From the NCBI GenBank assembly GCA_028704195.1, contig JAQVLL010000002.1, forward strand, positions 1 to 24,479: DNA of 24,479 nt. The letters run 5' to 3'. The position numbers and the translations under genes are program-made. The notes beneath the pieces are model-generated. The model had not been told where the DNA came from. It saw only the letters and a program-made list of their open reading frames with translations, and made no database searches. This document shows positions 4,408-22,607 of the stretch, piece by piece; position 1 is the stretch's first letter; each line of letters starts with the position of its first letter. Origin of the DNA: Smithellaceae bacterium. Its GTDB lineage: Bacteria; Desulfobacterota; Syntrophia; Syntrophales; Smithellaceae.

Positions 4408-4437
4408 AATTTAGGATAATTAAATGATTCATGTCAA
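4408..4437 (-). promoter_or_regulatory. Possible sigma70 promoter of the lipoprotein gene (TTGACA-N18-TAAATT)
   Basis: Perfect -35 at 4437-4432, 18-nt spacer, -10-like TAAATT at 4413-4408. Confidence 0.45.
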
Positions 4438-4446
4438 GGGAAATGT

Positions 4447-7245: not shown

Positions 7246-7471
7246 GTGTTCCTTCATGTTAAAGCGACCGGACAGATTGCCTTTTGACCTGACGGCGCGC
7301 CTCCGGGTTCGTTGTTTTGTCGATGGGGCGGGCACGACCCGCGGTTACTTACAGCGGGGAACACGCGTTTATCTATATTTTCACTCAACCTGTCAGAAAG
7401 TCAAGAAAATATTGTATAAAAGCAAGCAGATGGTAATGATATGCTCTTGATATAAAGGTTTATCCGATAGC

Positions 7472-9235
7472 TCAACAGTCTCTTTTATGTGCCTTGACGA
7501 TCTGTGAACGGATCATGCGCGGAAGAATCAGATGATGTTGTGGACAGATGGAGCGCGGATTTTGATAAACGCAGTTGGCAAAGCCTACCAAATATTTGCG
7601 CAATTGATCATAACGCACGATCTCGTCGACGAAGCCCTTTTGGGCGCAATACAGCGGATTGGACGTGTCATCATAATGTTTAACCATTTCGTTCATCCTG
7701 TCGATCGTAGGTTGCAAAGACCGTCCGTCATCTTTTTCCTTGACCAGGCGTCGGGCGTATGTTGCCGCCGCCGCCGTTTCTCCGTGCATGACGTTGATCT
7801 CTGTCGCCGCCGTACCCAGCGAGAAGGCATTGTTGTTGTTGGCTACCGGTCCGCCCATGACATAATAGCCGGCCACGCTGCCTTTGCGCAGAACGATGAG
7901 CATCATTGCCAGCTGGGAATTTTCAATGGAATAAATCAGGGATTGTCCGAGGCCTAGCAGCTCTGCTTTTTCCGCATCATCACCAACGTCAATGCCACTG
8001 GTGTCCTGAATCCAGATGACAGGAATTTTATCTCGGGAACACAATGTGACAAATTCACTCATCTTGATCAAACCCTGGCGGTAGAGCCTGCCGCCCGTCC
8101 CTTCATAGGCTTTGGTGTACTCCGGATATTCCATGAAAGCTCCCTGCCGGTTGCCGATCACGCCTATCAGGTATCCATCGATCTTCACCAGGCCTGTATA
8201 GACTTCCGGGCCGAATCCGGGACAGAATTCCATGTGCTCGGAGCGGTCGACCAGTCTTGCCAGCACTTGCTCGAAATCATATACACTTTTTTTATCAACC
8301 GGAACAATCGAGGCAATTTCCGATGGCGGATATTTTGGCTGTGCAGGTTCGGCCACGCGGAAAAAGCGCGGCCTGAATGCGGGAAGATCGTCCATGTAAT
8401 CCCTGATGGCGTCGAGCACCTGTTTTTCTTCGTCAAAAACGGCACGGAAAAATCCGGTGACATCGTAATGAATTTTAACGCTGCCGGGCGGAACGGATTT
8501 AAAATGCCTGGTCGCGCTGATGATTTCCTCCGCCCGCGTTTCATTGTAGGTCCCTGCCGGATGGATGCCGCTGAGGATGCCGCCGCCACCCACAGCCATA
8601 TTCGCCTTCTTATGAGCAAGCAGAATCACCGGACTGACCGACTGGTAACCGCCGCCTGCAGGATTGGTGCCGTAGATACCGGCAATGACCGGGTTGCCCA
8701 TGATCTCCAGCTCTGCATGGCGATAGAAACAGGCCCCCTGACCCCGTTTTCCTGCATACACTTTTTCCTGTTCGGTGAGCTTGACGCCTGAACAGTTCAC
8801 CAGCCACACCAGCGGAATGTGCAGGAGTTTGGCGATGTCCGTGACCCGCAGGTTGTTGTCCGGCTGACCCGCGATCCACGCGCCCGCCATCCATTTGTTG
8901 TTGAAGCCGATGAGGACGCACCACTTGCCGCGGATGCGGGCCAGGCCGTCCACGACGCCGGTGCTTCCCGATTCCTCGTTCTCCGGATCAAAGATGCTGT
9001 GCAGCGGGCAGAAGGTCCCGGGATCCACCAGGTATTCGATGCGCTGCCAGACGCTCATCTCGCCGCGCTCGTTCAGTCTGGACAGTGGGACGCCTACGGT
9101 TTTGATACGCTCGACTTCGGCGTCGATTGCCTTCATGATTTCTTCGATCTTTGAGCAGTTTTCCCTCATGTTTTCGATTTCTATTTCGGAAAGCTGGCTT
9201 CCCAGCGGATCCATTTTTTCAAAATACTGCCTCAT
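7472..9235 (-). CDS. gcdA: Glutaconyl-CoA decarboxylase alpha-subunit-like carboxyltransferase (divergent)
   Basis: 587 aa; collinear with Acidaminococcus GcdA as recalled: GKWCVL, AGAW..GQ, VNCSGVK..EQEKVY, GIYGTNPAGGGY, QGLIKM, QDTSGIDVG..AEKAELLGLGQSLIYSI, GTAATEI.VM.GETAA. SD AGGAG. Confidence 0.82.
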   Translation of the reverse strand: MRQYFEKMDPLGSQLSEIEIENMRENCSKIEEIMKAIDAEVERIKTVGVPLSRLNERGEMSVWQRIEYLVDPGTFCPLHSIFDPENEESGSTGVVDGLARIRGKWCVLIGFNNKWMAGAWIAGQPDNNLRVTDIAKLLHIPLVWLVNCSGVKLTEQEKVYAGKRGQGACFYRHAELEIMGNPVIAGIYGTNPAGGGYQSVSPVILLAHKKANMAVGGGGILSGIHPAGTYNETRAEEIISATRHFKSVPPGSVKIHYDVTGFFRAVFDEEKQVLDAIRDYMDDLPAFRPRFFRVAEPAQPKYPPSEIASIVPVDKKSVYDFEQVLARLVDRSEHMEFCPGFGPEVYTGLVKIDGYLIGVIGNRQGAFMEYPEYTKAYEGTGGRLYRQGLIKMSEFVTLCSRDKIPVIWIQDTSGIDVGDDAEKAELLGLGQSLIYSIENSQLAMMLIVLRKGSVAGYYVMGGPVANNNNAFSLGTAATEINVMHGETAAAATYARRLVKEKDDGRSLQPTIDRMNEMVKHYDDTSNPLYCAQKGFVDEIVRYDQLRKYLVGFANCVYQNPRSICPQHHLILPRMIRSQIVKAHKRDC

Positions 9236-9255
9236 GGCTGACTCCTGTATCGGGG

Positions 9256-10413
9256 CTAAACCCGGTTTGGTGCAAATCCCATTGCCGCGTTGGCAACAAT
9301 CATGGTGTGCATGTTGGATGTTCCTTCCAGCGTTTCGAACTGCTTGGAGTCCCGCAGGAATCGCCCGCAGGGATATTCATCGGAATAGCCGAAGGAGCCG
9401 AACAGCTTCATGCATTCATTGGCGTCGTGAACAACAACTTTCGCACCGTATAGTTTGGACATGGAGGTTTCCATCACGTTGGGCATTCCTTTGTCCTTGA
9501 GCCAGGCAGCCTTGTACACCAGCGCCGCCAGGGTTTCGTGTCCGACTTTCATTTCCGCAACCTGCTGCTGAATCAGCTGGTACCTGCCGATCTGCTTTCC
9601 GAACTGACAGCGCTCCGTAGCGTATTTTGCAGAGGCGTCCAGGATCGCGCCGGAAAGGCCCAGTGCGCCCGCGGAGCAGCCCAGGCGTGTGGAATTGAGT
9701 TGCGTCATGCACATCTGGAACCCGCGGTTGAGCTTTCCAAGAAGAAGGCTTTTGGGTACTTTTACATCTTCAAAGGTGATCTCTGCCGTGTCGGCTGCCC
9801 ACAGTCCGACTTTATCGTTGATTTTTTTTCGGGTAACGCCGGGAAGGCTGTAGTCCATGATAAAGCAACTGATACCGTTGGCGCCCGCGTCCTTATCGGT
9901 TTTAACATACAGCAGACCGTGATTGGTGACGGTTCCGTTGGTGATCCACATTTTGTTTCCGTTGAGCAGATAGTAATCGCCTTTATCATCAGCGTGGCAT
10001 TTCATTGAAGCGACGTCGGAGCCGATATCCGGTTCGGTCATGGCAAAGCTGCCGATGTATTCACCGCTGACGAATTTTGGAATATAATGCTGCTTCTGCT
10101 CTTGGGTGCCGAATTTCTGGATGGTCAGCGCAGGGCCCCAGCACTGCATGTTGAAGGCCATCCGCCAAGAGGTGTGCACTTTGGCGATTTGTTCAATAGC
10201 CAGAGCACCTTCCAGGAAGCCCATGCCATTGCCGCCGTACTTTTCGTCGATGGAGAAGCCGAAAAAACCCAGCTCGGCCATCTTGTCGAATATTTCTTTG
10301 CGCCAGAAATGATTTTTCTCATCTTCCTCTACATGCGGCGCGATCTCTTTTTCGGCAAAACTTCTGGCCGTGTCCTGAATCATCGTTTGTTCTTCTGTTA
10401 ATGCGAAATTCAT
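9256..10413 (-). CDS. Acyl-CoA dehydrogenase resembling non-decarboxylating glutaryl-CoA dehydrogenase (385 aa)
   Basis: Start moved to the ATG at 10413 (SD GGAGGA). FAMTEPDIGSD, NGNKMWITN and catalytic E363 (TLEGTSN). R84/N88 match the carboxylate-binding R87/N91 of the Desulfococcus enzyme; C-terminal NR; 20 bp upstream of gcdA. Confidence 0.8.
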   Translation of the reverse strand: MNFALTEEQTMIQDTARSFAEKEIAPHVEEDEKNHFWRKEIFDKMAELGFFGFSIDEKYGGNGMGFLEGALAIEQIAKVHTSWRMAFNMQCWGPALTIQKFGTQEQKQHYIPKFVSGEYIGSFAMTEPDIGSDVASMKCHADDKGDYYLLNGNKMWITNGTVTNHGLLYVKTDKDAGANGISCFIMDYSLPGVTRKKINDKVGLWAADTAEITFEDVKVPKSLLLGKLNRGFQMCMTQLNSTRLGCSAGALGLSGAILDASAKYATERCQFGKQIGRYQLIQQQVAEMKVGHETLAALVYKAAWLKDKGMPNVMETSMSKLYGAKVVVHDANECMKLFGSFGYSDEYPCGRFLRDSKQFETLEGTSNMHTMIVANAAMGFAPNRV

Positions 10414-10560
10414 ATTGTTTATCCTCCGAGGCTTTTTCCTGTTGCCATTGCGAGCAGACCCTTGGTCTGCGCTGCAATCCCTAAAGCATAGGGAAGGGTT
10501 TGAATAACCTGACCACCTGAAGGTGGTGCGAGACCACGCGACCATTCCCTGTGATAAATG
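10414..10560 (-). other. Highly structured intergenic RNA segment (4 stems, alternative pairings)
   Basis: Perfect stems at 10454-10470 (GCAGACC/GGTCTGC), 10478-10494 (TCCCTA/TAGGGA) and 10512-10527 (ACCACCT/AGGTGGT); long-range pairing 10541-10550 with 10490-10499. Confidence 0.55.
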
Positions 10561-11829
10561 TTATTTTCGTTCAATAATTACGCATATTCCCTGACCGCCG
10601 CCGCCACAGATCGTTTCCAGTCCGAAACGCTTATCTGACCGCACCATTTCGTTGATCAGTGTGGTAAGGCGCATCGTGCCGGTTGCTCCGATGGGATGGC
10701 CGAGTGAAATGCCCGATCCGTTTACATTGACCTTCGCATCCATCTGCTCGTCGGAAATCCCCGAGAGTCTTGCATCCGCAAGGCACTGGACGGCAAAGGC
10801 TTCCTGTACTTCAATCAGGTCCATCTGATCGATGGTTGCGTTGATCTTTTTCAGCGCTTTTTCCACGGCCCCCGGAACCGCGGGGTAGGTAATAGTGGGG
10901 TCTGTGGCCGCTACAGCGCAGGAGCGAAAATAGGCCAGGGGTTTTACGCCCAGCTCTTTCGCTTTCTTTTCAGAAGCCATCACAACCACGGCCGCGCCGT
11001 CATTTTCCGACGATGAATTGCCCGCGGTGCAGATACCATCCTGATAAACAGGTTTCAGTTTGGCCAGGCGCTCCAGCGTGGTTTCCCGGCGCGGTCCCTC
11101 ATCTGTTTTCAGGTAAACCGTTTCACCGCTTTTTTTGTCAAGGCCTATGGGCACAGGAACAATTTCATCGGCGAACTTGCCAGCGTCCTGTGCCGCGATT
11201 GCTCTCTTATGGCTGCGCAGCGCCCAGCGGTCAGCTTCTTCGCGGGTGATTTTTTCTCTTTTGGCCGCCGTTTCAGCCCAGGTCATCATCGAGCTCAGTT
11301 CCCCGTAGCGCGCGATGGGCTGAGACATGACCCGCCCGCGCTGGATACGGTCATAAAAAGGAATGCCCCACATTGCCAGCGCTCCGTGGCCGCGGGGCAT
11401 GAACCCGTATTTTTCATGGTTTTTCCCGCCCAGTCCCCACTTGATGTCTCCGGGAATGTATAATTCTCCCTGGCTCATGGATTCCATGCCGCCGGCAATG
11501 ACCAGTTCGGCATTGCCTGTCTGGATTTTCATGGCTCCGTAAAAGATGGTATCCAGCCCCGAGCAGCAGCGTCTGTCCAGCATGATCCCCGGGATGGTGT
11601 CCGGCCAGCCTGCATCAAGCACGGCCATACGCGCTCCGTTGGCGCACTCGCCGTTCTGGTAGGCCGATCCCATGATGACATCATCAATGATGGCCGGATC
11701 GATCCCCGTTTTTTTTATTGCCGCCTGTAAAACAAGGCTTGCCAGCCGGTAAACAGGCACATCCCTGAACGCACCTCCGTATGCGCCGATGGGCGTACGC
11801 GCGCAACTGATAAAAACCACATTTTCCAT
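10561..11829 (-). CDS. Acetyl-CoA C-acyltransferase (thiolase)
   Basis: Start moved to the ATG at 11829 (SD GAGGTG). Catalytic Cys (DRRCCSG), NSSSENDGAA, QEAFA, NVNGSGISLGHPIGATG and C-terminal ICGGGGQG. Confidence 0.95.
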   Translation of the reverse strand: MENVVFISCARTPIGAYGGAFRDVPVYRLASLVLQAAIKKTGIDPAIIDDVIMGSAYQNGECANGARMAVLDAGWPDTIPGIMLDRRCCSGLDTIFYGAMKIQTGNAELVIAGGMESMSQGELYIPGDIKWGLGGKNHEKYGFMPRGHGALAMWGIPFYDRIQRGRVMSQPIARYGELSSMMTWAETAAKREKITREEADRWALRSHKRAIAAQDAGKFADEIVPVPIGLDKKSGETVYLKTDEGPRRETTLERLAKLKPVYQDGICTAGNSSSENDGAAVVVMASEKKAKELGVKPLAYFRSCAVAATDPTITYPAVPGAVEKALKKINATIDQMDLIEVQEAFAVQCLADARLSGISDEQMDAKVNVNGSGISLGHPIGATGTMRLTTLINEMVRSDKRFGLETICGGGGQGICVIIERK

Positions 11830-11881
11830 AAACCGCACCTCGATAGATGAATTGACGTTTTCTTATGTATCTTTCCTTTGT

Positions 11882-13549
11882 TCAGGCCACCGTTTCCACT
11901 CGCGGATCTGTTTGATAGACGGGGCTGTACATCTTTGATTTAATGAATCCCGGTAAATCTGATGGTTCTTTCATCGCAGTGAGTCGCCTGGCAAATGCCA
12001 GCCTGGCAACGGTTGTCGCAATATGGAGGGACACTTCTCGAATGCGTGACAGTGACGGAAAAATCCTGCCCAGTTCCAAATCCTCTGTGGTTGCTTTCTT
12101 GGCCACGCACGCGGCAGCCACGGAAAACATTTCATCCGTTACCCGGGTTGATTCTGAAGCCAGAACGCCCAGCCCGACACCGGGGAATATATAGACATTG
12201 TTTGCCTGGCCCGGAATAAAATTCTGACCATTGATAACGACCGGCGGAAAGGGACTTCCGCTTGCAAATACCGCGTGTCCGTTTGTGTGGCTGTATGCGT
12301 CCTGTGCTGAGCATTCCGATCGTGAGGTCGGATTGGAAAGTGCAAACACAATGGGACGTTCATTCCATTTGGCCATGGCCTGTAAAATCTCCGGGGTGAA
12401 TGCCCCGGACTGCCCTGATGCTCCGATGATGGCGGTTGGTTTGATGGCATTGACCGCGGAGAAAAGATCGCGATGGAAGGGAAAGTCGTGGGCAAAGCGG
12501 CTTTTGTGCTGCACAAGGTCCGTTCGGCTCTCGACAACCAGTCCTTGGGAATCAACAAACCAGCAGCGGCCACGGGCTTCATTTTCAGAAAGACCCTGAT
12601 TAATCATGGAGGTGACTACCAGATTTCCGATCCCCAGGGCAGCCTCTCCCGCTCCCAGAAACACCAGTTTTTGGTCGGTCATTTTACCGCCGGTCATGCA
12701 CAGTGCCGAATACAACCCGGCCAGTGCCACACCGGCTGTACCCTGGATGTCGTCGTCGAACATGCAGTAGCGATCCCGGTAACGGTCAAGCAGCCGGAAG
12801 GCGTTTTTGTTGCCGAAGTCTTCGAACTGAATCATGACATGAGGGAATGTTTTGCTGGCTGCCTCCATAAACTCATCCAGGAGAGCATCGTATTCCTCCC
12901 CCTGCAGGCGTTCCTCCGGCAGACCGATATATTCCGGGTCACTCCAAAGCCCTTTGTTGCCGGTGCCGACATCGATCATGACCGGCAGGCATGCGTTGGG
13001 CGCGATGCCCGCACAGGCCGTGTAAAGTGACAGCTTGCCCACGGGAATTCCCATACCGTTGGAACCAAGATCGCCAAGTCCCAGGATGCGTTCGCCGTCT
13101 GTTACCACAAGGATGCGAACTTCCTTGTGTGGCCAGTTGCGCAGAATGCTCCTGATGTGGCCGCGATGATGCTTTGTAATGAAGATTCCACGGGGGCGAC
13201 GGAAAACTTTGCTGTATTCCTGGCAGGCCAGTCCAACGGTCGGCGTATAGATAATAGGGCTCAGTTCTTCGAGGTGCTCGATGAGTGTTTTGTAGAACAA
13301 CTGCTCATTGCGATCCTGCAGACCGATCAGATAAAGGTATTTTTCAAGGTTGCTGGGTTTGCGGCGGACATTGTTCATGATGTGCTGAACCTGCTGCTGC
13401 TGAGAAGAAATAATCGGCGGCAGCAATCCTTCGAGTCCCAGTGCTTTACGCTCAGCAGCGGTGAAGGCGGTGCCTTTATTCAAGGCGGGATCATGCAGTA
13501 AATCGATCCCCAGGGGAAGTTCCTCAAGACCTGATGGATGTTTTGCCAT
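11882..13549 (-). CDS. Malic enzyme, large (MaeA/eukaryote-like) type, possibly NADP-preferring
   Basis: 555 aa; NKGTAFT..ER..LGLEGLLPP, IYTPTVGLAC, VTDGERILGLGDLG, IQFEDF, DDIQGT, GAGEAA, ALSNPT..SEC and GQANNVYIFPG. Confidence 0.95.
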   Translation of the reverse strand: MAKHPSGLEELPLGIDLLHDPALNKGTAFTAAERKALGLEGLLPPIISSQQQQVQHIMNNVRRKPSNLEKYLYLIGLQDRNEQLFYKTLIEHLEELSPIIYTPTVGLACQEYSKVFRRPRGIFITKHHRGHIRSILRNWPHKEVRILVVTDGERILGLGDLGSNGMGIPVGKLSLYTACAGIAPNACLPVMIDVGTGNKGLWSDPEYIGLPEERLQGEEYDALLDEFMEAASKTFPHVMIQFEDFGNKNAFRLLDRYRDRYCMFDDDIQGTAGVALAGLYSALCMTGGKMTDQKLVFLGAGEAALGIGNLVVTSMINQGLSENEARGRCWFVDSQGLVVESRTDLVQHKSRFAHDFPFHRDLFSAVNAIKPTAIIGASGQSGAFTPEILQAMAKWNERPIVFALSNPTSRSECSAQDAYSHTNGHAVFASGSPFPPVVINGQNFIPGQANNVYIFPGVGLGVLASESTRVTDEMFSVAAACVAKKATTEDLELGRIFPSLSRIREVSLHIATTVARLAFARRLTAMKEPSDLPGFIKSKMYSPVYQTDPRVETVA

Positions 13550-13596
13550 ACGGATCTTATCTCCATTCCCTAAGATACAGTCTGTTCGATGTTGTC

Positions 13597-13625
13597 ATTA
13601 TATTTTGTTTGCAGATATTTTTCCA
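13597..13625 (-). promoter_or_regulatory. Candidate internal promoter upstream of malic enzyme (sigma54-like TGGAAAA-N4-CTGCA overlapping sigma70-like TGGAAA-N17-TATAAT)
   Basis: GG/GC at exact -24/-12 spacing (13625-13610) and TATAAT at 13602-13597, in a 180-bp intergenic gap. Confidence 0.4.
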
Positions 13626-13729
13626 TTGTTTAAAGGAATATATCCGCTCCTTTGGATTATTTATCGTTTCAATCCCGGTTATGATTGCCTTTTTCCTTCT
13701 ACCTGTCCGGCCTTTCCTGTTGTAAAAGA

Positions 13730-15565
13730 TCAACTGACGATCAATGCTTCTTCCGGACAGGTGAGGACAGAATCTTCTTCGCTCTTGATGAGAGCGGCCA
13801 GCACAGGTGTTCCCGGCAGGATGTTGTTGAGGTAATACCTGGCTGATGCAATCTTTCCCTGGTAGTAATTGTAGTCCGCCTCACCTTCTGTTAACGTATC
13901 AAGCTTAGAGGCGGCAATCCTGGCCTGATCCATCAGGCACATCGACACGTACACTTTTGCGAATACAAACAAGGCCCGGATGGCATACAGCGGAATCAAC
14001 CGGCGTTTGTTTTTCAGATCGGCGTACCAGGAATCATAGGTCGCTCTTACATCAGCCGCTGCCTGATATCCTTTGTCCAACTGACTCATCTCTTTTTCAA
14101 AATTCGGCATATTCATGTTCGCGTCGATGAAGGACCTGATGTCCTGCATCCAGGCAGTAAAAGTAGTTCCTTCTTTCATGCGCATTTTGCGTCCGATCAG
14201 GTCATTGGCGTGAATAAACGAAGTGCCTTCCCAAATGGAAAGAATTTTGGAATCCCGCAGGTACTGTTCAACGGGATATTCCTGCGTGTATCCCACACCT
14301 CCCAGTACCTGAATCGCCTGAGTGATCACACCGACACTTGCCTCACTTCCGTAACACTTAACCAGCGGTGTCAGAATTTCCGCAAACGAACCGCATCTTT
14401 TCGCTTTTTCTTTATCGGGGGAATTATTCTCAATGTCCAGGTAGTAAAATCCCTTAAAGATCATGGCGCGGATGCCTTCAACATGGGCTTTCATATCCAA
14501 AAGCATCCGGCGAATGTCTTCATGCCTGATAATGGGCACGCGCTCGGCTCCTTTAACACCAAACGGTCTTCCCTGAATCCGTTCTGTTGCGTACTGCGAA
14601 GCAAAATAGCAGGCGGCGGCTCCCTGGGTATTGGCGTTATGGCCCGTTCCGATGCGCGACTCGTTCATCATATGGAACATCATGGCCAGTCCCTGGGAAA
14701 ATCCATTTGCGTCAGGCGCGGGTCCAAGCATAATGCCCCGGCAATTGTCTTCATCACCAAAATTTAAAAGAGTTGTTGCCTGGGCGTGCAACCCCATTTT
14801 ATGTTCAATCCCCACGGTAGTGACATCATTGGAGTCCCCCATAGATCCGTCATCATTCACCCAGTATTTGGGTACTATATAAAGACCGATTCCAGGAGAA
14901 CCCATGGCTCCTCCTTCAGGTCTTGCCAGCACCAGGTGGATGGTGTTTGCACACGTGCCCTGATCGCCGGCGGTGATGAACATCTTGGTTCCCTTGATTT
15001 TCCAAATGCGGGGATCATGGGTGGGGTAGGAACGGGTAATAATATCAACTATATCGGAGCCGAAATTGGGTTCGGTCAGGCACATCGTTCCCTGCCAGTA
15101 TCCTCCCAGCATTTTTGAGACAAACATGTCCTGATCCTTCTTTGTGCCGAAACGAAAAATCAAATTCGCCGCTCCCGAAGTAAGCTTTACACAGGAAGTC
15201 AGTGCCGGGCAGGCTGCCGTGTTGATTTCAGCATTAGCCTTGTACAGCATCAGCGGCATCCCTGTTTCTACCTTAATGCACTCACTTGATGATCCCCAGC
15301 CGTTTTGCTGCAGATATTGGTATGCCTCCTTGAAGCCGGGCGCCGGTGTTACAACGCCTTTGTCAAATTTGACGCCGATCTTGTCGCCCGGTGCGTTGAT
15401 GGGATGAACAATTTCCCTGGATACTTTGTAACCTTCATTGAGCAGCATATCGACATCGTCAAGCGTGAAATTGCCCTTGAATCGATCGCACGACAAGACT
15501 TCCTCTGTCGGAAGCCATTCTTTTAAAATAAACTTTAAATCCCTGATGTCATATTTAAATTCCAT
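13730..15565 (-). CDS. Long-type (~600 aa, FadE5/DmdC-like) acyl-CoA dehydrogenase
   Basis: 611 aa; GTMCLTEPNFGSD, IKGTKMFIT.G, IHLVLAR, IEHKMG, MFHMMNESR, LTPLVK, QAIQVLGGVGY..EYPVEQY.RD and catalytic IWEGT. Confidence 0.93.
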   Translation of the reverse strand: MEFKYDIRDLKFILKEWLPTEEVLSCDRFKGNFTLDDVDMLLNEGYKVSREIVHPINAPGDKIGVKFDKGVVTPAPGFKEAYQYLQQNGWGSSSECIKVETGMPLMLYKANAEINTAACPALTSCVKLTSGAANLIFRFGTKKDQDMFVSKMLGGYWQGTMCLTEPNFGSDIVDIITRSYPTHDPRIWKIKGTKMFITAGDQGTCANTIHLVLARPEGGAMGSPGIGLYIVPKYWVNDDGSMGDSNDVTTVGIEHKMGLHAQATTLLNFGDEDNCRGIMLGPAPDANGFSQGLAMMFHMMNESRIGTGHNANTQGAAACYFASQYATERIQGRPFGVKGAERVPIIRHEDIRRMLLDMKAHVEGIRAMIFKGFYYLDIENNSPDKEKAKRCGSFAEILTPLVKCYGSEASVGVITQAIQVLGGVGYTQEYPVEQYLRDSKILSIWEGTSFIHANDLIGRKMRMKEGTTFTAWMQDIRSFIDANMNMPNFEKEMSQLDKGYQAAADVRATYDSWYADLKNKRRLIPLYAIRALFVFAKVYVSMCLMDQARIAASKLDTLTEGEADYNYYQGKIASARYYLNNILPGTPVLAALIKSEEDSVLTCPEEALIVS

Positions 15566-15615
15566 GACGTGTTTCCTTATTGATTCTGCCTCAGGTCCAT
15601 GTAATCCGTTCAGGC

Positions 15616-17700
15616 TTATTTTGAGTAGAAGCCCTTTCCTTCCCTGGCAAGTCTCTCGAGGAGCGGTGAGGGGGTCCAGTATTCGGCGCCGACGAGATCC
15701 CTGTACTTCAGAATCGCATCGTAAACCTTCTTCAGGCCAACCGTATCGGCATAGAACATCGGGCCGCCAAGATAAACGGGGAATCCATAACCGTTGAGCC
15801 AGACGACGTCAATGTCGAGTGGACGAGCCGCGATTCCTTCTTCCAGAATTTTCGCGCCTTCATTGATCATAGAGTAAATTGCCCGTTCGATGATTTCCTG
15901 ATCGGTGATGGTGCGGCGGGGGATCCCGACTTCCTGAGAATGCCTGATGATGAGTTCTTCAATCATCGGATCGGGCGTTGCATTGCGCTTTTCGTCGTAT
16001 TGATAGAAGCCGGAACACGTCTTCTGTCCGAAACGCCCCATCTCGCAAATCTTGTCGATGATGTTGCATGCTTTTTCCCGTGGGGTCAACGAGTCGAATT
16101 TGGCCTTACGGTTTCGCCAGCCGATATCCAGGCCGGCCATGTCGCCCATGGCATAAGGGCCCATGGGGAACCCGAAGTTGTAGATGGTCTTGTCGATCTG
16201 CCATGGTAGTGCGCCTTCCTCAAGCATGAAACCGCATTCTCGGGTGCGCCTGGCCAGCATGCGGTTGCCGACAAATCCGTCGCAGACGCCGACCAGAACC
16301 GGCACTTTGCCGATGGCCCTGCCCACTTTCATGGCGGTGGCGTAAACGTCGGGCGACGTTTTTGCGCCGCGCACGTTCTCCAGAAGACGCATCACATTGG
16401 CGGGGCTGAAAAAATGCGTACCCATGACGTCCTGCGGCCTTTTGGTAGATGCTGCGATTTCGTCGATATTCAGATAGGATGTATTGGAAGCAAGAATGGC
16501 TCCGGGCTTGCAGATGGCGTCAAGTTTGCCAAAGACTTCTTTCTTTACAGATATGTCTTCAAAAACCGCCTCGATGACCAGGTCAACATTCTTCAGGTCG
16601 TCATAGGAAAGGGTCGGTGTAATCAGCGATAAGCGCTTATCCATAATTTCCTGCTTGATTTTGCCTTTGGCAACGGTGCTCGCGTAGTTTTTCCTGATGA
16701 CGGCAAGACCCTTCTCCAGCAATTCCTGTTTGACTTCCAGAAGGACAACGGGGATCCCGGCATTGGCAAAGCACATGGCAATGCCGCCGCCCATCGTACC
16801 CGCGCCCAGCACGCCCACGGACCTGACTTCCCGTGTCGGTTGATCATCGGGCAGCCCCGGTATGCGGACAACCTCACGTTCGGAGAAGAAAACATGACGC
16901 AGCGCTCTGGACTGGTCTGATGCCTGCAATTCCAGAAATATGGCACGCTCCCGTTTCATGCCTTCGGCAAAGGGGAGCTCGGTGGCGATTTTGACAGCTT
17001 CGATGCATTTGTACGGGGCGATGGCGCCACGGAATTTGCGGGCATTGGCTTTGGCAAAATCGTCAAAAACAGAAGGGGAATCGACTCTGGCCTGTCGTTC
17101 GCTCACTTTGCGGACAGGACGTTTTTCGTCAATCACTCTTTTAGCAAAGGTAAGCGCCTCTGCTTTCAGGTCACCTTCAATGATTGCATCGAGAATGCCC
17201 ATTTCTTTGGCCCGGGTCGCCGGTACAGGAACACCGGAGGTGATCATTTCCAGCGCTGCCTGCACTCCGGCCACACGGGGCAGCCGCTGCGTTCCACCCG
17301 CGCCGGGCAGAAGTCCCAGCTTCACTTCGGGCAGGCCCACCCTTGCGGATGACACGGCTATCCGGAAATGACAGCCCAGGGGAATTTCAAGGCCTCCGCC
17401 CAGTGCCGTTCCGTGAATTGCAGCGATGACCGGTTTGGGAGAATCCTCGATGAACTGGCAGACATCCGGCAAATAAGGTTCCATGGCCGGCTTGCCGAAC
17501 TCCCGGATATCGGCGCCTGCAATAAAAGTGCGTCCCTCGCACAGGATGATCATGGCCGAAACACTGTCGTTAGCAATGCCTTTTTCCAGACCTGCCTTGA
17601 TTCCGGCACGAACGGCCTGGGACAGGGCGTTTACCGGCGGGTTGTTAACGGTAATGATCCCTATGTTTCCTTCTTTTGAAAAACGTACAGCTTCTGACAT
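15616..17700 (-). CDS. Bifunctional enoyl-CoA hydratase/3-hydroxyacyl-CoA dehydrogenase (PimF/FadB-like)
   Basis: 694 aa; crotonase domain (NPPVNAL, FIAGADI, HGTALGGGLE, LPEVKLGLLPGAGGTQRLPR) plus HACD (GAGTMGGGIA, EAVFE, ASNTS, HFFSPANVM, GFVGNRM). Collinear with Rhodopseudomonas PimF as recalled. SD AAGGAG. Confidence 0.95.
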   Translation of the reverse strand: MSEAVRFSKEGNIGIITVNNPPVNALSQAVRAGIKAGLEKGIANDSVSAMIILCEGRTFIAGADIREFGKPAMEPYLPDVCQFIEDSPKPVIAAIHGTALGGGLEIPLGCHFRIAVSSARVGLPEVKLGLLPGAGGTQRLPRVAGVQAALEMITSGVPVPATRAKEMGILDAIIEGDLKAEALTFAKRVIDEKRPVRKVSERQARVDSPSVFDDFAKANARKFRGAIAPYKCIEAVKIATELPFAEGMKRERAIFLELQASDQSRALRHVFFSEREVVRIPGLPDDQPTREVRSVGVLGAGTMGGGIAMCFANAGIPVVLLEVKQELLEKGLAVIRKNYASTVAKGKIKQEIMDKRLSLITPTLSYDDLKNVDLVIEAVFEDISVKKEVFGKLDAICKPGAILASNTSYLNIDEIAASTKRPQDVMGTHFFSPANVMRLLENVRGAKTSPDVYATAMKVGRAIGKVPVLVGVCDGFVGNRMLARRTRECGFMLEEGALPWQIDKTIYNFGFPMGPYAMGDMAGLDIGWRNRKAKFDSLTPREKACNIIDKICEMGRFGQKTCSGFYQYDEKRNATPDPMIEELIIRHSQEVGIPRRTITDQEIIERAIYSMINEGAKILEEGIAARPLDIDVVWLNGYGFPVYLGGPMFYADTVGLKKVYDAILKYRDLVGAEYWTPSPLLERLAREGKGFYSK

Positions 17701-17756
17701 GCTTAGGGTCTCCTTTTTTTATGAATGTAAACGGGGCTATTTTACTCCATTTACTT

Positions 17757-17772
17757 AGCAAATACCATACCA
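17757..17772 (-). promoter_or_regulatory. sigma54 (-24/-12) promoter of the catabolic operon
   Basis: Minus strand TGGTATG-GTAT-TTGCT matches TGGCACG-N4-TTGCW with exact GG..GC spacing, 56 nt upstream of the start, next to a divergent bEBP. Confidence 0.8.
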
Positions 17773-17813
17773 GTGAATGTTCATGGATTTATGCATTACC
17801 GAACAGGCGTCTG

Positions 17814-17864
17814 GGACTGTCCTGCCAATGATCTTTATATGTGCAACACCGGGATGGACCATCC
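17814..17864. promoter_or_regulatory. Candidate upstream activator sequences (two GGACYRTCC palindromes)
   Basis: GGACTGTCC (17814-17822) and GGACCATCC (17856-17864, within the perfect GGATGG-A-CCATCC); 42 bp apart, at about -72 and -114. Confidence 0.5.
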
Positions 17865-17890
17865 ATGCGAATCCGTTTTAGCTGACATAT

Positions 17891-17920
17891 TTGACAAAAA
17901 TGTATTTATTGTATACAATA
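17891..17920 (+). promoter_or_regulatory. sigma70 promoter of the activator (TTGACA-N17-TACAAT) overlapped by the palindrome TATTGTATACAATA
   Basis: -35 at 17891-17896, -10 at 17914-17919; perfect 14-bp palindrome at 17907-17920. Confidence 0.75.
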
Positions 17921-17965
17921 TAATTTATAGTGTATATTAAATAAACAATATGGATTGTATTCAGT

Positions 17966-19030
17966 ATGACGGGCATGAGCCATCAGCGCAAATATAAAAA
18001 AAATGAAACCGTTGGTCCGGCTGTTGCAAGGAAGGATCCCGCAGGGGAGAAGCTGGGAGCGGCATTTGACGAACTGATCGGCGCCAATGTTGCTTTTCGG
18101 GATGCCCTGATGACCGCCCAGCGGGCCGCTCAATCGGACATATCGGTTCTCATTATCGGGGAAAGCGGTACGGGGAAAGAAATTCTGGCGCGGGCCATCC
18201 ACCAGAGAAGCAGCCGCAGGGACAAGCCGCTGGTCGATGTCAATTGCGCAGCCATTCCGGACAGCCTGATCGAAAGCGAGCTTTTTGGATATGAACGGGG
18301 CGCCTTTACCGGAGCGCGCGCCGAAGGCCGAAAAGGCTATTTCGATGAGGCGCATGAAGGGACGATTCTGCTCGATGAGATCGGCGATTCCTCTTTATCC
18401 GTCCAGTCCAAATTATTGCGTGTGCTAGAATCCGGTTCCTTCAAAAGAGTCGGCGGGATGAAAAACATCAGGGTGAACGTGCGGATTATTTCTTCAACCA
18501 ACCAGGATCTTGCCGGTTTGATTGAAGAGAAAAAATTTCGTGAAGACCTTTTCTTTCGTTTGAATCCCTTCACGATTCTGCTCCCGCCGCTTCGTGAACG
18601 CATTGAAGACATCCCGCTTCTGGTTGATTATTTTTTGAAAAGCCACGATTTCGCAAGAAAGCAAAAATACAAATTTTCTCCTGATGCTTTCAGGGTCCTT
18701 CAAGGATATCACTGGCCGGGAAATGTACGGGAACTCAAAGGGGTTGTAAGCTATGCTGTGAATATGGCTCAATCGCCTTTGATTGATCCGTCGTCCCTGC
18801 CGAAATTTCTTTTTTCCGGACCGGACACGCCGCAAAATCATGGAAGGATAGTTCCTGGCGGTGTGGCCGCATCGTATAACCTTGTCGAATCGATTCGCGA
18901 TCTGGAACGTAAACTGATCACAGAAGCGTTAACCATTGCCCCAAACAAGTCGGCGGCCATTAAAATGCTGGGGATCAGCAGGAGGACCTTTTACCTGAAA
19001 CTGAAAGAATACGGATTGGATAAACAGTAA
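17966..19030 (+). CDS. sigma54-dependent activator (bEBP) with AAA+ and Fis-type HTH but no sensory domain
   Basis: 354 aa; GESGTGKE, VNCAAIP..LIESELFG, intact GAFTGA, LLDEIGD, FREDLFFRLN, WPGNVREL and C-terminal HTH; only ~30 aa precede the AAA+ domain. Confidence 0.93.
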   Translation: MTGMSHQRKYKKNETVGPAVARKDPAGEKLGAAFDELIGANVAFRDALMTAQRAAQSDISVLIIGESGTGKEILARAIHQRSSRRDKPLVDVNCAAIPDSLIESELFGYERGAFTGARAEGRKGYFDEAHEGTILLDEIGDSSLSVQSKLLRVLESGSFKRVGGMKNIRVNVRIISSTNQDLAGLIEEKKFREDLFFRLNPFTILLPPLRERIEDIPLLVDYFLKSHDFARKQKYKFSPDAFRVLQGYHWPGNVRELKGVVSYAVNMAQSPLIDPSSLPKFLFSGPDTPQNHGRIVPGGVAASYNLVESIRDLERKLITEALTIAPNKSAAIKMLGISRRTFYLKLKEYGLDKQ

Positions 19031-19037
19031 TCAAAAC

Positions 19038-19053
19038 TGGAATGACTTATGCA
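19038..19053 (+). promoter_or_regulatory. Candidate sigma54 promoter for the lyase-like gene
   Basis: TGGAATG-ACTT-ATGCA with exact -24/-12 spacing, 7 nt after the activator stop. Confidence 0.5.
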
Positions 19054-19082
19054 AAAAATTACATTATTTGACGTGGGACCCT

Positions 19083-20090
19083 ATGACCATGAATGAAAAT
19101 CGGGCATCGGCAGGCAAATCTTTCAGGAAGAATGATGCGCAGGTTACCATCGTGGAAGTATCTCCGCGGGACGGTCTGCCGGAGATCTGCAAAGGTTTAT
19201 CTACAACAGATAAAATAAAATATATCAATAAATTGTCCGAAACAGGTCTCAGGAAAATCGAGTGTGCATCTTTCATGCACCCCCGTCTTTTGCCCCTGGG
19301 CTACGATGCAGAAAAACTGATCACGGGCATTTCCAAAAAACAGGGTGTGACCTATGTGGGGCTTGTTCCGAATGAAATCGGTTGCCGCCGCGCGATGATA
19401 ACGCAAATCGATGAAATCCTGATTCTTATTTCGGCAAGCGACACATTCAACAAACTGAATATCGGCAGGACGCTGAAAGAAAGCCTCAATAAAATGCTCC
19501 CCTCCATACTGGATACGGCGGTAAAAAACTCACGCAGTGTCCGCGCTTACATGATGACCGCCTTCGGCTGCCCTTACACGGGTAAAATCAGCCCAGAAGA
19601 CATCGTGCAGTTGGTGTTAAAACTCAGTTACATGGGAGCCTCCGAAGTTGTGCTGGTCGATTCCACCGGAATGGCAAATCCCAGGTCGGTTCAAGCGATG
19701 CTCCGCGTCCTGCTGGACTTGCAGCTTGACATCAATCTGGCTGTGCATTTTCACAACACGAGAGGAGCGGCGATTGCCAACTGCATGGCCGCCTATGATG
19801 CGGGTATCCGCGTTTTTGACACGTCACTGGGCGGGATGAGTGCGACACCTTACGGGGTAAGCGAAATGGACGTCGGCAGCTGGAATGTGCCGACGGAAGA
19901 TCTGGTCCATCTGTTTGAAGAAATGGGCATTCCGACGGGAGTTGATCTTGAAAAGCTTCTGGATTGTGTCCGTATGGCAGAGCAAATGGCCAGAATGCGC
20001 CTTCCCGGTCATCTGCTGCGGGCAGGCAAGTCATCTCAGATCGTCGGGGTACCGAAGCATCTGCAGCGGCATCCCATCATGGATCAATAA
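19083..20090 (+). CDS. HMG-CoA lyase-fold (DRE-TIM) protein with altered active site
   Basis: IVEVSPRDG, KIE, FGCPYTG, HFHNTRG and NVPTEDL. Canonical RDGLQ reads RDGLP and GLGGCPY reads GMSATPY. Start is ambiguous (19068 TTG, 19083 or 19089 ATG). Confidence 0.85.
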   Translation: MTMNENRASAGKSFRKNDAQVTIVEVSPRDGLPEICKGLSTTDKIKYINKLSETGLRKIECASFMHPRLLPLGYDAEKLITGISKKQGVTYVGLVPNEIGCRRAMITQIDEILILISASDTFNKLNIGRTLKESLNKMLPSILDTAVKNSRSVRAYMMTAFGCPYTGKISPEDIVQLVLKLSYMGASEVVLVDSTGMANPRSVQAMLRVLLDLQLDINLAVHFHNTRGAAIANCMAAYDAGIRVFDTSLGGMSATPYGVSEMDVGSWNVPTEDLVHLFEEMGIPTGVDLEKLLDCVRMAEQMARMRLPGHLLRAGKSSQIVGVPKHLQRHPIMDQ

Positions 20091-20118
20091 ATCGATGCGG
20101 TTCTAAAACCGCGTCGAT
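20091..20118. terminator. Terminator hairpin between convergent genes
   Basis: ATCGATGCGGTT-CTAA-AACCGCGTCGAT, a 12-bp stem with one G-U pair; T-rich tail on the minus strand. Confidence 0.7.
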
Positions 20119-20158
20119 GATGATATTCAAAATGAAAGATGTTTATTTTGTATACACC

Positions 20159-22315
20159 CTACAGTTTCAATCCTTTTTTGATTCTCTCGAGCATGGCCTT
20201 TTCATCGTCGTCGTATGGTCCGTCCACCAGGCAGAGTCTGCGGGCAATGCTGAGGGCCTCAAATCGGTCGTCCTTGTCCTTGATCAGGACCGATAAGGTA
20301 TTGAACGCTTTATCCTCGTCAGCCTGAAGGATAGCGACCTGCTCATGCATAATTTTTTTAAATTGTGGTGCACTCAGTTTCTTGAGGACCTTGTGAGTTC
20401 TGGCGATTTCGTTGCCGATTTCAAAATGCCGTCTTTTCACGTGCTGACCGATTTTGGCAATGGCCACGTACACTCGTATTAAACCGGCGGCCAAACCTCC
20501 TTCTTCCATCGCCAGCAGGCGCTTGTCGTAATCAGCGCGCTCATGTTCCGGCAGCTCTCTGGACGGTTCTTGCGGTGCAGGCGGGAATAAACGCCTCAGC
20601 CAATCACTGCCGTAAATATTTTTAAACAGCTGCTCCTGGCTTAAGTCACGATAGTCGCGATAAATATCAAGAACATTTTCGACATATTCGGAAATAGATT
20701 TCTCCATGGCGTTAAAGGGGTTGTCTGTCGCCGCGGGCTTTCGGTTCTGCCGCGTGATCGATGCGATATTTTTAAGCGGTCGCATCAAGGGATTGATGTC
20801 GGCAAACAGGTAACGCTGGAGGCGGAGCGGATGCAGATAACGGATGACTTCCGCGGAAAGCTCCGTGGTCCAGAATTTTACCCACGGACGCGCGAGCAGT
20901 TGATAGACGTTATCATTGGCTTCGGATATTTTTGCCACCACACTGAAATCTGTTTCGTCTGTTGTTCCGTCATCATAGGCGGCTATGTCCGCAAATGTCC
21001 GCGGCTCAAAATGAGTGGTGAATTTGCCGCTCATGACATCGCCTTCGATCACCATTTCGTAAAGGCCGGGGCTCAAGAAATCAATCATGTCAAAATTGCC
21101 AATGATCTCGTTGTGTTCTTTTTTGGCTACGGATCCCGCAACAAAAATTCCCAGATGGCCGATTTTTTCATGGACAATGTAGATGATGACCTGCCCATGC
21201 CTTTTGATGTCTTCCACGGAGGAATAAACGCGGGGAATCCAGTTGAGCGCCTGCTGGGTAGGGGTGATGTTGTCACCCTGCGATGCGAAAACAATAATCG
21301 GACTTTCGATATTCTTCAGGCTGATCTTCTGACCTTCCTGCAGCTCAAGCTGTCCCTGTTCCAGTTTGTTGCCGACAAAAAGGTTTCGGACGATATAGTG
21401 GATTTCGTCGGTGTTCATCATGAAGAAACCGCCCCACCATTTTTCAAAGTTGAGATATCGATCCTCCTCCTTATCCACCTGCGAATAAACATTGTACTGC
21501 TTGGTCCAGAATGTGTTGGACGGATTGAGCAGCTCCATGTTCAGAACCAGGTTGGCGCCGTCAAAAACTCCGTTGCCAAGATCACTGAAAAAGGAATTGA
21601 CCCAGACGCCGCCTAACAGACCGCCTTTGTAGCGCATGGGATTGACTCCTTCGACTCCGCTCCAGTAAGACAAGGGCGCGCCGTTCAGCACCAATGGTCC
21701 CGCGACATCGGGTCGGTCCGCACAAGCCAGTGCCGCTGCCCAACCCGCCTGGCAGTTACCTATAATGGCCGGGGCGTCTGCTTCAGGGTGTAATTCGACC
21801 ACTTTCTCAATGAACGTTTCGATGGCTTCAATCACATCCGCCATGGTCTGTCCGGGGATAGGGTCCGTATAAAAGAGGATAAAATAAACCGGGTGGCCGT
21901 GTTCGAGCGCCATGCCGATTTCCGAATCGCGCTTGGACCCGCCGATCCCGGGACCGTGGCCGGCGCGGGGATCAATAATCACAATGGGCCGTTTTGGCCT
22001 TGTTACCCGTTCCCTGATCTTGTCCCGGCGATCGTCGACAACCTTTTGGATGTCGGCGCGGCGGCGGTCGGAAATTTTGACCAGTGCGTAATTGGCGGGT
22101 CGTTCAAAATTCTTGGCGTTAAGGATCATTTCGTAATTATACGTCAGCACCGGCGGCTGGCCGCTGCGGAGATGTTTGATGTAATTGTTGCCTCTTTTGC
22201 GTAAAATATCCGTGAAAATGATGGACCGCTGCAGGGAATCCACCATGTATTCGCCCAGATGCTTTTGCCAGTCGGACCACTGTGCGGTTTGATCATCACC
22301 GGTTTGTGTATCCAT
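20159..22315 (-). CDS. DUF3141-family PHA-synthase-like alpha/beta hydrolase
   Basis: 718 aa; DPRAGHGPGIGG, Cys nucleophile box GNCQAGW, GAPLSYWSG, NPSNTFWTKQY, FEKWWGG, ASQGDNITP and GHLGIFV (Cys-Asp-His triad). SD AAGGAG. Confidence 0.85.
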   Translation of the reverse strand: MDTQTGDDQTAQWSDWQKHLGEYMVDSLQRSIIFTDILRKRGNNYIKHLRSGQPPVLTYNYEMILNAKNFERPANYALVKISDRRRADIQKVVDDRRDKIRERVTRPKRPIVIIDPRAGHGPGIGGSKRDSEIGMALEHGHPVYFILFYTDPIPGQTMADVIEAIETFIEKVVELHPEADAPAIIGNCQAGWAAALACADRPDVAGPLVLNGAPLSYWSGVEGVNPMRYKGGLLGGVWVNSFFSDLGNGVFDGANLVLNMELLNPSNTFWTKQYNVYSQVDKEEDRYLNFEKWWGGFFMMNTDEIHYIVRNLFVGNKLEQGQLELQEGQKISLKNIESPIIVFASQGDNITPTQQALNWIPRVYSSVEDIKRHGQVIIYIVHEKIGHLGIFVAGSVAKKEHNEIIGNFDMIDFLSPGLYEMVIEGDVMSGKFTTHFEPRTFADIAAYDDGTTDETDFSVVAKISEANDNVYQLLARPWVKFWTTELSAEVIRYLHPLRLQRYLFADINPLMRPLKNIASITRQNRKPAATDNPFNAMEKSISEYVENVLDIYRDYRDLSQEQLFKNIYGSDWLRRLFPPAPQEPSRELPEHERADYDKRLLAMEEGGLAAGLIRVYVAIAKIGQHVKRRHFEIGNEIARTHKVLKKLSAPQFKKIMHEQVAILQADEDKAFNTLSVLIKDKDDRFEALSIARRLCLVDGPYDDDEKAMLERIKKGLKL

Positions 22316-22337
22316 AGAGATTCTCCTTGCAGTGCGT

Positions 22338-22390
22338 TAATTATTGATAATTATTAATTGTACCTTATCGATGTATCAGGCGGTTGTCAA
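22338..22390 (-). promoter_or_regulatory. sigma70 promoter of the DUF3141 gene (TTGACA-N17-TAAGGT) with an AT-rich palindrome at the start site
   Basis: -35 at 22390-22385, -10 at 22367-22362; TAATTAT-TG-ATAATTA at 22338-22353. Confidence 0.55.
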
Positions 22391-22607
22391 GACGGTAAAG
22401 ACGTTAATGCCCGGACGGCGAGGTGTTGAAGAGGACGAAGTTTTGTGGCCGGCCGGGTATCCTTCTCACCACGGGAAGGGCATTTGTGTATGGGGCATCA
22501 GGAGGGGTTTTGTCCTACGGCCGGATCCTTTTATACTCATGGAAAATTCAGAAAAGTTCTGTTAAGAACAATAAAAATGCTTTCAATCATCTCAAAGTGG
22601 GAAAAAT

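Follow-up and report, generated by a model that had tools for sequence, protein, structure and literature searches.

Does the gene cluster at positions 7472 to 20090 of contig JAQVLL010000002.1 encode a single catabolic pathway, and if so, for which substrate and under what control? The contig, here called the window, was analysed over its entire 24.5 kb (24,479 nucleotides); it belongs to a 2.49-Mb metagenome-assembled genome (MAG), 85% complete, whose host is a member of the Smithellaceae (Syntrophales). An initial annotation had read the cluster as an undescribed sigma-54-controlled system for dicarboxylate beta-oxidation with two exits, one for odd-numbered and one for even-numbered chains. 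The reading that we favour, if only slightly, is a sigma-54-controlled operon oxidizing a glutaryl-CoA-type dicarboxylyl-CoA, here extended by beta-oxidation enzymes and a recruited malic enzyme. Gene identities were assigned from Pfam and NCBIfam profile matches, relatives of solved structure and genome-wide tblastn, and gave the following features.

7472-9235, minus strand: GcdA, carboxyltransferase subunit of glutaconyl-CoA decarboxylase (694 bits to 3GF3, 680 to 1PIX)
9256-10413, minus strand: acyl-CoA dehydrogenase (ACAD) resembling glutaryl-CoA dehydrogenase (GDH), 385 amino acids (aa) (best solved relative 3MPI, 311 bits)
10561-11838, minus strand: thiolase (acetyl-CoA C-acyltransferase; TIGR01930, 396 bits, cut-off 241)
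11882-13549, minus strand: NAD(P)-malic enzyme, SfcA/MaeA type (NF010052, 712 bits, cut-off 326; both malic enzyme domains)
13610-13625, minus strand: P2, candidate GG-N10-GC element TGGAAAAATATCTGCA upstream of malic enzyme, kept in 11 relatives
13730-15565, minus strand: long ACAD, 611 aa, FadE5/DmdC type with Acyl-CoA_dh_C tail (relatives 8PNS, 6IJC and 6KPT)
15616-17700, minus strand: bifunctional enoyl-CoA hydratase/3-hydroxyacyl-CoA dehydrogenase, monomeric MFE-1/FadB' type (Pfam ECH_1, 3HCDH_N and 3HCDH)
17757-17772, minus strand: P1, predicted sigma-54 (-24/-12) promoter TGGTATGGTATTTGCT, conserved in relatives
17891-17919, plus strand: predicted sigma-70-type promoter TTGACA-17-TACAAT of the activator/lyase-like pair (top match of the scan, 11 of 12 positions)
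17966-19030, plus strand: sigma-54 enhancer-binding activator, 354 aa, without sensor domain (Sigma54_activat, AAA_lid_14 and HTH_8)
19068-20090, plus strand: DRE-TIM protein resembling 3-hydroxy-3-methylglutaryl-CoA (HMG-CoA) lyase, of a distinct subfamily (passes the PRK05692 cut-off, 276 vs 246)

All eight genes are open frames with strong family matches, and the six co-oriented genes (minus strand, 7472-17700), the -24/-12 promoter, the divergent activator and the lyase-fold gene (the last two on the plus strand, 17966-20090) were present as first described. The cluster contains no gene for a CoA ligase or transferase, an electron transfer flavoprotein (ETF) or a transporter, also as first described; the ETF genes were located on contig C84. 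The start of the GDH-like gene was corrected from that of the longest open reading frame, 10545, to 10413 (385 aa, with GGAGG 8 nt upstream), and the lyase-like gene probably starts at 19083, giving 335 aa. The malic enzyme protein scored below the cut-off of the malolactic-enzyme model. A 47.6-kb contig of a DNA run spans positions 4068-22900 with the same gene order, and this run may be the source sample. The comparison set consisted of 80 species-representative loci around orthologues of the GDH-like ACAD (76-97% identity), onto which every window gene, together with genes seen in the relatives, was mapped.

Alignment of the GDH-like ACAD, which carries three ACAD domains, with the GDH of Desulfococcus (3MPI) revealed that R84 corresponds to R87, N88 to N91 and L362-E363 to V366-E367, E363 aligning with the catalytic Glu. 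The position of Arg84 is occupied by Gly in butyryl-CoA and isovaleryl-CoA dehydrogenases, and the LEG of this protein stands where 3MPI has VEG and butyryl-CoA dehydrogenase has YEG; isovaleryl-CoA dehydrogenase has no Glu there. The Arg binds the terminal carboxylate of the substrate, the Tyr contacts the carboxylate group lost as CO2, and YEG has been reported for decarboxylating GDH (PMC3169403). The nearest homologues of the protein came from Smithella, Smithellaceae and Syntrophales MAGs, and the automatic KEGG/JGI annotation labels its orthologues as non-decarboxylating GDH. The gene 20 nt downstream encodes a protein that matched solved GcdA over its full length (residues 1-577, approximately 55% identity by eye), with the scores to 3GF3 and 1PIX given above versus no more than 145 bits to AccD or to the beta subunits of propionyl-CoA carboxylase (PCC) or methylcrotonyl-CoA carboxylase (MCC); by these scores it is a true GcdA orthologue. 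A GcdA gene accompanied the GDH-like gene within 10 kb in 43 of the 80 loci, and 64 of the 151 genomes sampled from the order encode GcdA. The carboxylate-binding Arg, the Leu in place of Tyr, the full-length GcdA match and the synteny all agree with the proposed glutaryl-CoA branch, in which a non-decarboxylating GDH works together with GcdA, and this prediction is well supported.

Candidate partners of GcdA lie outside the cluster. One gene for an OAD_beta (GcdB-like pump) protein lies on contig C289, the only strong biotinyl-domain match was an OadA-like protein on contig C364, and neither GcdC nor GcdD was recognised in the 85%-complete genome; no biotin carrier could be recognised among the neighbours of GcdB in the relatives. 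Contigs of two public runs that are otherwise near-identical to the window differ from it by about 45 clustered bases at 8807-8954 within gcdA, which by this pattern is a strain-variable or recombined tract.

The same alignments bear on whether the cluster is instead an ordinary operon for beta-oxidation of fatty acids or butyrate, in which the 385-aa ACAD would be a short-chain dehydrogenase and GcdA and malic enzyme mere neighbours. The ACAD scored almost equally with butyryl-CoA dehydrogenase (4L1F), and in a distant relative its orthologue sits with a crotonase, a 3-hydroxyacyl-CoA dehydrogenase (HCDH), two thiolases and a 4-hydroxybutyryl-CoA-dehydratase-like gene, without GcdA. However, Arg84 was specific to glutaryl-CoA dehydrogenases in the alignments, gcdA follows at 20 nt and recurs as a linked gene in more than half of the loci, and separate bcd-like paralogues occupy a classical butyrate cluster on contig C6. 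We regard the butyrate reading as very unlikely.

Mapping of the genes onto the 80 loci gave the following counts.

Thiolase adjoining the GDH-like gene: 65 of 80 loci
GcdA within 10 kb: 43 of 80
Long ACAD, in three different arrangements: 28 of 80
Lyase-like gene: 27 of 80
Activator, always with the lyase-like gene: 25 of 80
SucCD: 19 of 80
Malic enzyme: 18 of 80
5S OadA-type carboxyltransferase: 11 of 80, of which 10 directly before malic enzyme
FadB-type enzyme: 5 of 80
GcdB: 5 of 80

The trio of thiolase, GDH-like ACAD and GcdA was conserved in 39 loci, and the full six-gene set in none of the 80 other loci; its two nearest relatives (L014 and L088) have five of the six, all but the long ACAD. 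Apart from the window, only these two had the fused hydratase/dehydrogenase at this position. The long ACAD is missing from its position in both and represents an insertion relative to them; its orthologues (72-86% identity) accompanied the GDH cluster in the 28 loci counted above. In a sister lineage the order was HCDH, thiolase, GDH, SucC, SucD, GcdA, in some cases GcdB, in some cases a fusion of aldehyde:ferredoxin oxidoreductase (AFOR) with an iron alcohol dehydrogenase (Fe-ADH), long ACAD and enoyl-CoA hydratase; a 600-aa CoA-transferase was encoded next to the lyase-like gene. As judged from gene order, the pattern across loci is a mosaic around a stable core, and the conserved unit is a divergent pair of activator and HMG-CoA-lyase-like genes facing an operon of thiolase, GDH-like ACAD and usually GcdA.

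Two arrangements in this set deserve mention. The locus L088 has the order FadB, malic enzyme, thiolase, GDH, GcdA, but it lacks both the activator/lyase pair and the P1 motif, and a DUF3141 gene abuts FadB. In L094, a 948-aa AFOR/Fe-ADH fusion is encoded at 16795-19641, between gcdB and the long ACAD; the presence of this fusion in operons of the sister lineage hints at omega-hydroxy or aldehyde acids as substrates.

The two-exits idea placed the malic enzyme at its centre: odd chains would leave via GDH and GcdA, and even chains via succinyl-CoA, succinate, fumarate and malate, which malic enzyme would convert to pyruvate, so that one operon would cover both parities. Consistent with it, SucCD separated GDH from GcdA in 19 loci, and genes for methylmalonyl-CoA mutase or epimerase lay beside the core in others, such genes being embedded in or flanking some clusters of other lineages. 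The SucCD of the sister lineage is bona fide, passing the equivalog cut-offs, and the genome of the window contains a class I fumarase and an SdhA/FrdA-like flavoprotein. However, tblastn detected no homologue of SucCD, or of the 600-aa CoA-transferase, in this genome, and where SucCD stands beside a CoA-transferase it may equally be explained as serving the activation of glutarate via succinyl-CoA. Oxidation of succinate is, moreover, energetically costly for syntrophs.

The distribution of the malic enzyme itself told against this role. Among the loci it was confined to a Smithella-level clade, it was directly preceded in 10 of its 18 loci by a 469-aa 5S OadA-type carboxyltransferase without a biotin domain, and it never shared a locus with SucCD, HCDH or GcdB. 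The place that 5S has in relatives is taken in the window by FadB and the long ACAD. The two-exits idea does not predict that malic enzyme should travel with a carboxyltransferase acting on pyruvate/oxaloacetate. A C4 connection of the core as such may nevertheless exist. Malic enzyme was the single tblastn match in the 85%-complete genome, and an orthologue was encoded elsewhere in the genome in three of five relatives whose cluster lacks it; it therefore looks like a general enzyme, and its place in the operon like a lineage-specific recruitment. Conservation of the gene set had been set beforehand as one of the points on which the idea would stand or fall, and since the six genes recurred together in none of the 80 loci, and five of them in two, it fails as a designed system. 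Read from synteny, the two-exits design is a recent gene mosaic and not a system, and we consider its biochemical scheme, with malic enzyme as the exit for even chains, distinctly unlikely. The modules 5S/malic enzyme and GcdB/SucCD were mutually exclusive across the loci, and the company of malic enzyme with 5S points to a carboxyl node at pyruvate/oxaloacetate.

Such a node suggests a different fate for the carboxyl group. GcdA could pass the carboxyl group of glutaconyl-CoA to a biotin carrier, from which the 5S carboxyltransferase would transfer it to pyruvate, the set acting as a glutaconyl-CoA:pyruvate transcarboxylase and not as part of a sodium pump, while malic enzyme and malate dehydrogenase would recycle or supply the C3/C4 partner; the route could also reverse, carboxylating crotonyl-CoA without ATP. 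This would account for the biotin-domain-free 5S directly before malic enzyme in the same operon as GcdA, for the absence of 5S and malic enzyme from loci with GcdB, which trails GcdA in the sister lineage, and for the conserved element in front of malic enzyme; the adjacency of GDH, gcdA and oadA in Geobacter bemidjiensis, which has no pump genes and for which a complex was proposed (PMC2996986), is a further point in its favour. On the other hand, the operon of the window has no 5S gene, none of these operons encodes a biotin carrier, and a pump is available, since one OAD_beta gene is present elsewhere in this genome and in four of five genomes with a 5S/malic-enzyme operon. We therefore consider transfer to pyruvate rather unlikely. 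The fuller proposal of a soluble, reversible shuttle of GcdA, 5S and malic enzyme, working instead of or beside a sodium pump and switched by the sigma-54 activator with its rewired lyase-like partner, is quite improbable in our estimate. If true, a shuttle free of CO2 exchange could belong to the six-carbon propionate dismutation route of Smithella. That route reportedly shows no label exchange with bicarbonate.

The promoter evidence concerns the control of the operon. P1 (TGGTATGGTATTTGCT, minus strand) sits 56 nt before the first ATG of the operon. Within the window alone the match was not above chance (12 two-mismatch matches, 14 expected), and P1 was counted as significant because it is conserved in the relatives. 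The motif TGGTAY-N5-TTGCW headed the operon in every one of the 26 loci that have the divergent activator, regardless of whether the first gene encoded FadB, 5S, HCDH, thiolase or CoA-transferase, and it occurred exactly once per ~20-kb locus in 36 fetched loci, where approximately 0.04 per locus would be expected by chance (an estimate). An rpoN gene was found in the genome. The activator has Walker motifs, GESGTGKE, GAFTGA and a helix-turn-helix, its open frame extends only 7 codons further upstream, and it was paired with the lyase-like gene in 25 of 25 loci. The promoter in all loci with a divergent activator, the presence of rpoN and the GAFTGA-bearing activator bear out the sigma-54 control that had been annotated, which is well supported as a prediction.

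Around the predicted sigma-70 promoter of the activator, a block TGTATAC...ATACA...TGTCAA recurred, by eye, in most Smithella-type relatives. Two GGACYRTCC-type palindromes upstream of P1 (17773-17870, minus strand) were considered and rejected, as they are not kept in L014, the closest relative to share this activator; unlike the palindromes, the block AATGCATAAATCCATGAA, immediately upstream of the -24 element, is retained there. The activator measured 353-354 aa, without a sensor, in Smithella-type loci and 451-460 aa in the sister lineage (L094, 6127-7509; L112, 7624-8979), whose proteins carry approximately 135 extra N-terminal residues that matched no Pfam family.

A second element, P2 (TGGAAAAATATCTGCA), lies ~60 nt upstream of malic enzyme and was found once per locus in 11 relatives, where its identity exceeded that of the coding sequence; it may be an internal promoter. 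A sigma-70 reading of the block before malic enzyme was rejected, since the -10 hexamer is not kept where 5S precedes malic enzyme, while the GG-N10-GC frame is kept. In L014 and L088, a 1-nt deletion disrupts P2. A scan of the intergenic gaps of the operon found no terminator-like sites. The spacer between thiolase and the GDH-like gene (10414-10560) was examined as a possible riboswitch or other switch RNA, but no Rfam family matched across the whole window and the fold z-score was -1.95. The spacer is 147 nt here versus 21 nt in the nearest relative and is specific to this genome; because the 147-nt spacer is missing from that relative, a riboswitch was rejected as a conserved element. A 30-nt piece of it matched contig C223 of the same genome and may be a small inserted repeat.

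The constant partner of the activator raises the question of a branched substrate. Comparison of the lyase-like protein with three solved HMG-CoA lyases revealed that the metal and catalytic residues R-D, E, HxH and N are kept, while Pro replaces Gln in RDGLQ and GMSATPY replaces GLGGCPY, with the catalytic Cys changed to Thr and a 4-residue insert. This signature of the rewritten loop was invariant in kind in 25 orthologues (56-87% identity), from which it follows that the subfamily is maintained and not decaying. The subfamily (at least 51% identity) was present in 12 of 151 genomes of the order, 9 of which also have GcdA. In another genome (L108, 16872-18659), the gene of a paralogue follows one for an enoyl-CoA hydratase at a distance of 43 nt; this arrangement suggests that a hydratase/lyase step on a 3-substituted substrate is real, and also suggests that the lyase-like protein may be an enzyme, more than a regulator's partner.

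The initial annotation had offered a methyl-branched substrate as an explanation for the lyase fold. In a broadened form, a 3-substituted C5 dicarboxylyl-CoA, such as 3-methylglutaryl-CoA, would be oxidized to the 3-substituted glutaconyl-CoA and hydrated to a tertiary alcohol, which cannot be dehydrogenated and would then be cleaved by the lyase-like enzyme. In agreement with this, the protein forms a distinct subfamily that is clearly subject to purifying selection and has an intact metal site, it accompanies the thiolase-GDH pair even where GcdA is missing, and the paralogue follows a hydratase gene as described. GcdA and the MCC beta subunit, moreover, share the same gamma-carboxyl chemistry. 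However, all 25 orthologues have Thr for the catalytic Cys in the rewritten signature loop, the lyase-like gene lies in the predicted sigma-70 unit of the activator and outside the sigma-54 operon, the best alignments of GcdA and the ACAD are with enzymes for unbranched substrates, and no dedicated methylglutaconyl-CoA hydratase was identified. A branched substrate seems unlikely to us.

The bifunctional enzyme at the head of the operon had 6IUM as its best solved relative (762 bits), followed by peroxisomal MFE-1; its closest proteins are FadB' of Cupriavidus and the same MFE-1, and the FadJ and FadB scores in NCBIfam were below cut-off. The enzyme, labelled PimF-like in the initial annotation, is by these matches a generic member of the MFE-1/FadB' type. 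The beta-oxidation company of the core was borne out, in that long ACAD and hydratase/dehydrogenase functions recur in the relatives, and this recurrent company fits an oxidation of chains longer than C5.

Under the reading that we favour, transcription would start from the -24/-12 promoter, driven by the divergent, sensor-less activator that is always paired with the lyase-like protein. The GDH-like flavoenzyme would oxidize glutaryl-CoA to glutaconyl-CoA without decarboxylation, GcdA would move the carboxyl of glutaconyl-CoA onto biotin, leaving crotonyl-CoA, and hydratase/dehydrogenase and thiolase would convert the latter to two acetyl-CoA. With the 5' extension by the MFE-1-type enzyme and the FadE5-type long ACAD, the operon would hold all four beta-oxidation activities, and longer acyl-CoAs, probably odd-chain dicarboxylic ones, could be shortened to glutaryl-CoA. 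The malic enzyme would be a lineage-specific passenger from the 5S/malic-enzyme module, tying carboxyl transfer to the pyruvate/oxaloacetate/malate pool. Substrates, flux direction, co-transcription and signal sensing are the parts of this reading that we infer; the gene identities, key residues, promoter conservation and synteny pattern on which they draw were observed directly.

Several observations weigh against this reading. The GDH-like ACAD reached 378 bits with the equivalog NF045552, below the cut-off of 470, and is filed here as GDH-like and not as an equivalog for that reason; its 307 bits to butyryl-CoA dehydrogenase 4L1F, moreover, come close to the 311 bits to GDH. No activating enzyme or transporter is encoded within the window, and with no BamA or Oah homologue scoring above cut-off in the 85%-complete genome, the lower benzoyl-CoA pathway was not adopted as the source of glutaryl-CoA. 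GcdA was missing from 37 of the 80 loci, some of which keep the thiolase-GDH pair together with the lyase/activator pair, and none was detected at the threshold used in a 94%-complete genome (G138); because some relatives lack GcdA, the product of the ACAD is not always handled by this enzyme. Gaps of 180 and 147 nt and the possible internal promoter make co-transcription less certain. One run labelled as RNA-Seq holds 85% of the operon, but it covers genes and spacers evenly and is probably DNA; its two sister runs contain next to none of the operon.

Comparison with known systems clarified which part of the cluster is new. Like the GDH of Desulfococcus multivorans (3MPI) and the SYN_00480 region of Syntrophus aciditrophicus, which belongs to the same order as the host (Syntrophales), the window combines the same two-enzyme logic with the carboxylate Arg, the loss of Tyr and the adjacency of ACAD and gcdA. 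It differs in that the identity to the Desulfococcus GDH is approximately 45% (by eye) and below the equivalog cut-off, with Leu instead of Val at the switch position; with neither BamA nor Oah above cut-off in this genome, the cluster is not evidently part of a lower benzoyl-CoA pathway, and its predicted control runs through sigma-54 and a divergent activator whose constant partner is a lyase-like protein. To our knowledge, no such pairing of a sigma-54 activator with a lyase-like protein has been described for the Desulfococcus or Syntrophus systems.

In Geobacter (Citrifermentans) bemidjiensis, Gbem_1452-1454 encode GDH, GcdA and OadA, and cooperation of the two decarboxylases was suggested (Aklujkar et al. 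2010, PMC2996986). The likeness consists in a non-decarboxylating GDH beside gcdA beside an OadA-type carboxyltransferase; the G. bemidjiensis OadA, however, has two biotin domains and its genome has no pump genes, whereas here the 5S of the sister loci lacks a biotin domain, a malic enzyme gene has been inserted, and one for a pump subunit lies elsewhere. With the glutaconyl-CoA decarboxylase of 2-hydroxyglutarate fermentation, the cluster shares the full-length GcdA (~55% identity by eye) and, in the sister lineage, a gcdB trailing gcdA, but here gcdB is unlinked, no gcdC or gcdD was recognised in the genome and the context is one of beta-oxidation. The pimFABCDE operon of Rhodopseudomonas palustris likewise unites a fused hydratase/dehydrogenase, a thiolase and ACAD functions, plausibly acting on dicarboxylyl-CoAs; neither ACAD of the window, however, matched PimC or PimD (101 and 94 bits; cut-offs ~650 and 624), and there is no PimA-type ligase. 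As in the propionibacterial methylmalonyl-CoA:pyruvate transcarboxylase (12S/5S/1.3S), the sister loci pair GcdA, of the 12S superfamily, with a 5S-type protein (485 bits to the 5S model), but the acyl-CoA side is GcdA and not 12S, no 1.3S is nearby and the window has no 5S. The lyase-like protein shares the DRE-TIM fold and the kept residues with HMG-CoA lyases (human HMGCL, B. subtilis YngG; 2CW6/1YDO) and differs from them in the substituted Cys and Gln, the rewritten and extended loop and, in this subfamily, a gene that always stands beside a sigma-54 activator.

The description of the system as undescribed thus holds for the exact gene combination but not for the enzymatic core, whose enzymology is known from Desulfococcus, Syntrophus and Geobacter; new are the conserved sigma-54 circuit with its lyase-like partner, the wide presence in Smithellaceae and the exclusive modules. 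The module goes unmentioned in a 2026 comparative genomics study of 108 Smithellaceae genomes, whose text contains none of the words glutaryl, glutaconyl, malic or sigma. In digesters, landfills and oil-degrading consortia, Smithella and its relatives act as key syntrophs, and most of their carbon routes have been inferred from gene lists. A widely conserved, predicted sigma-54-controlled glutaryl-CoA module in Smithellaceae offers a precise promoter motif for mapping of the regulon, the activator/lyase-like pair is a candidate signal module, and the exclusivity of 5S/malic enzyme versus GcdB/SucCD makes the question of transcarboxylase versus pump directly testable.

The genes flanking the cluster were also recorded. 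A DUF3141 gene (718 aa; 20159-22315, minus strand) recurred as a cluster neighbour in 7 of the 80 loci, and a phasin-like open reading frame lies at 3846-4274 (minus strand). A hybrid sensor kinase (REC, three PAS, HisKA, HATPase and REC domains) is encoded at 4447-7335, 136 nt downstream of gcdA on the same (minus) strand; it is retained in the two nearest relatives and might share a transcript with gcdA or feed into regulation.

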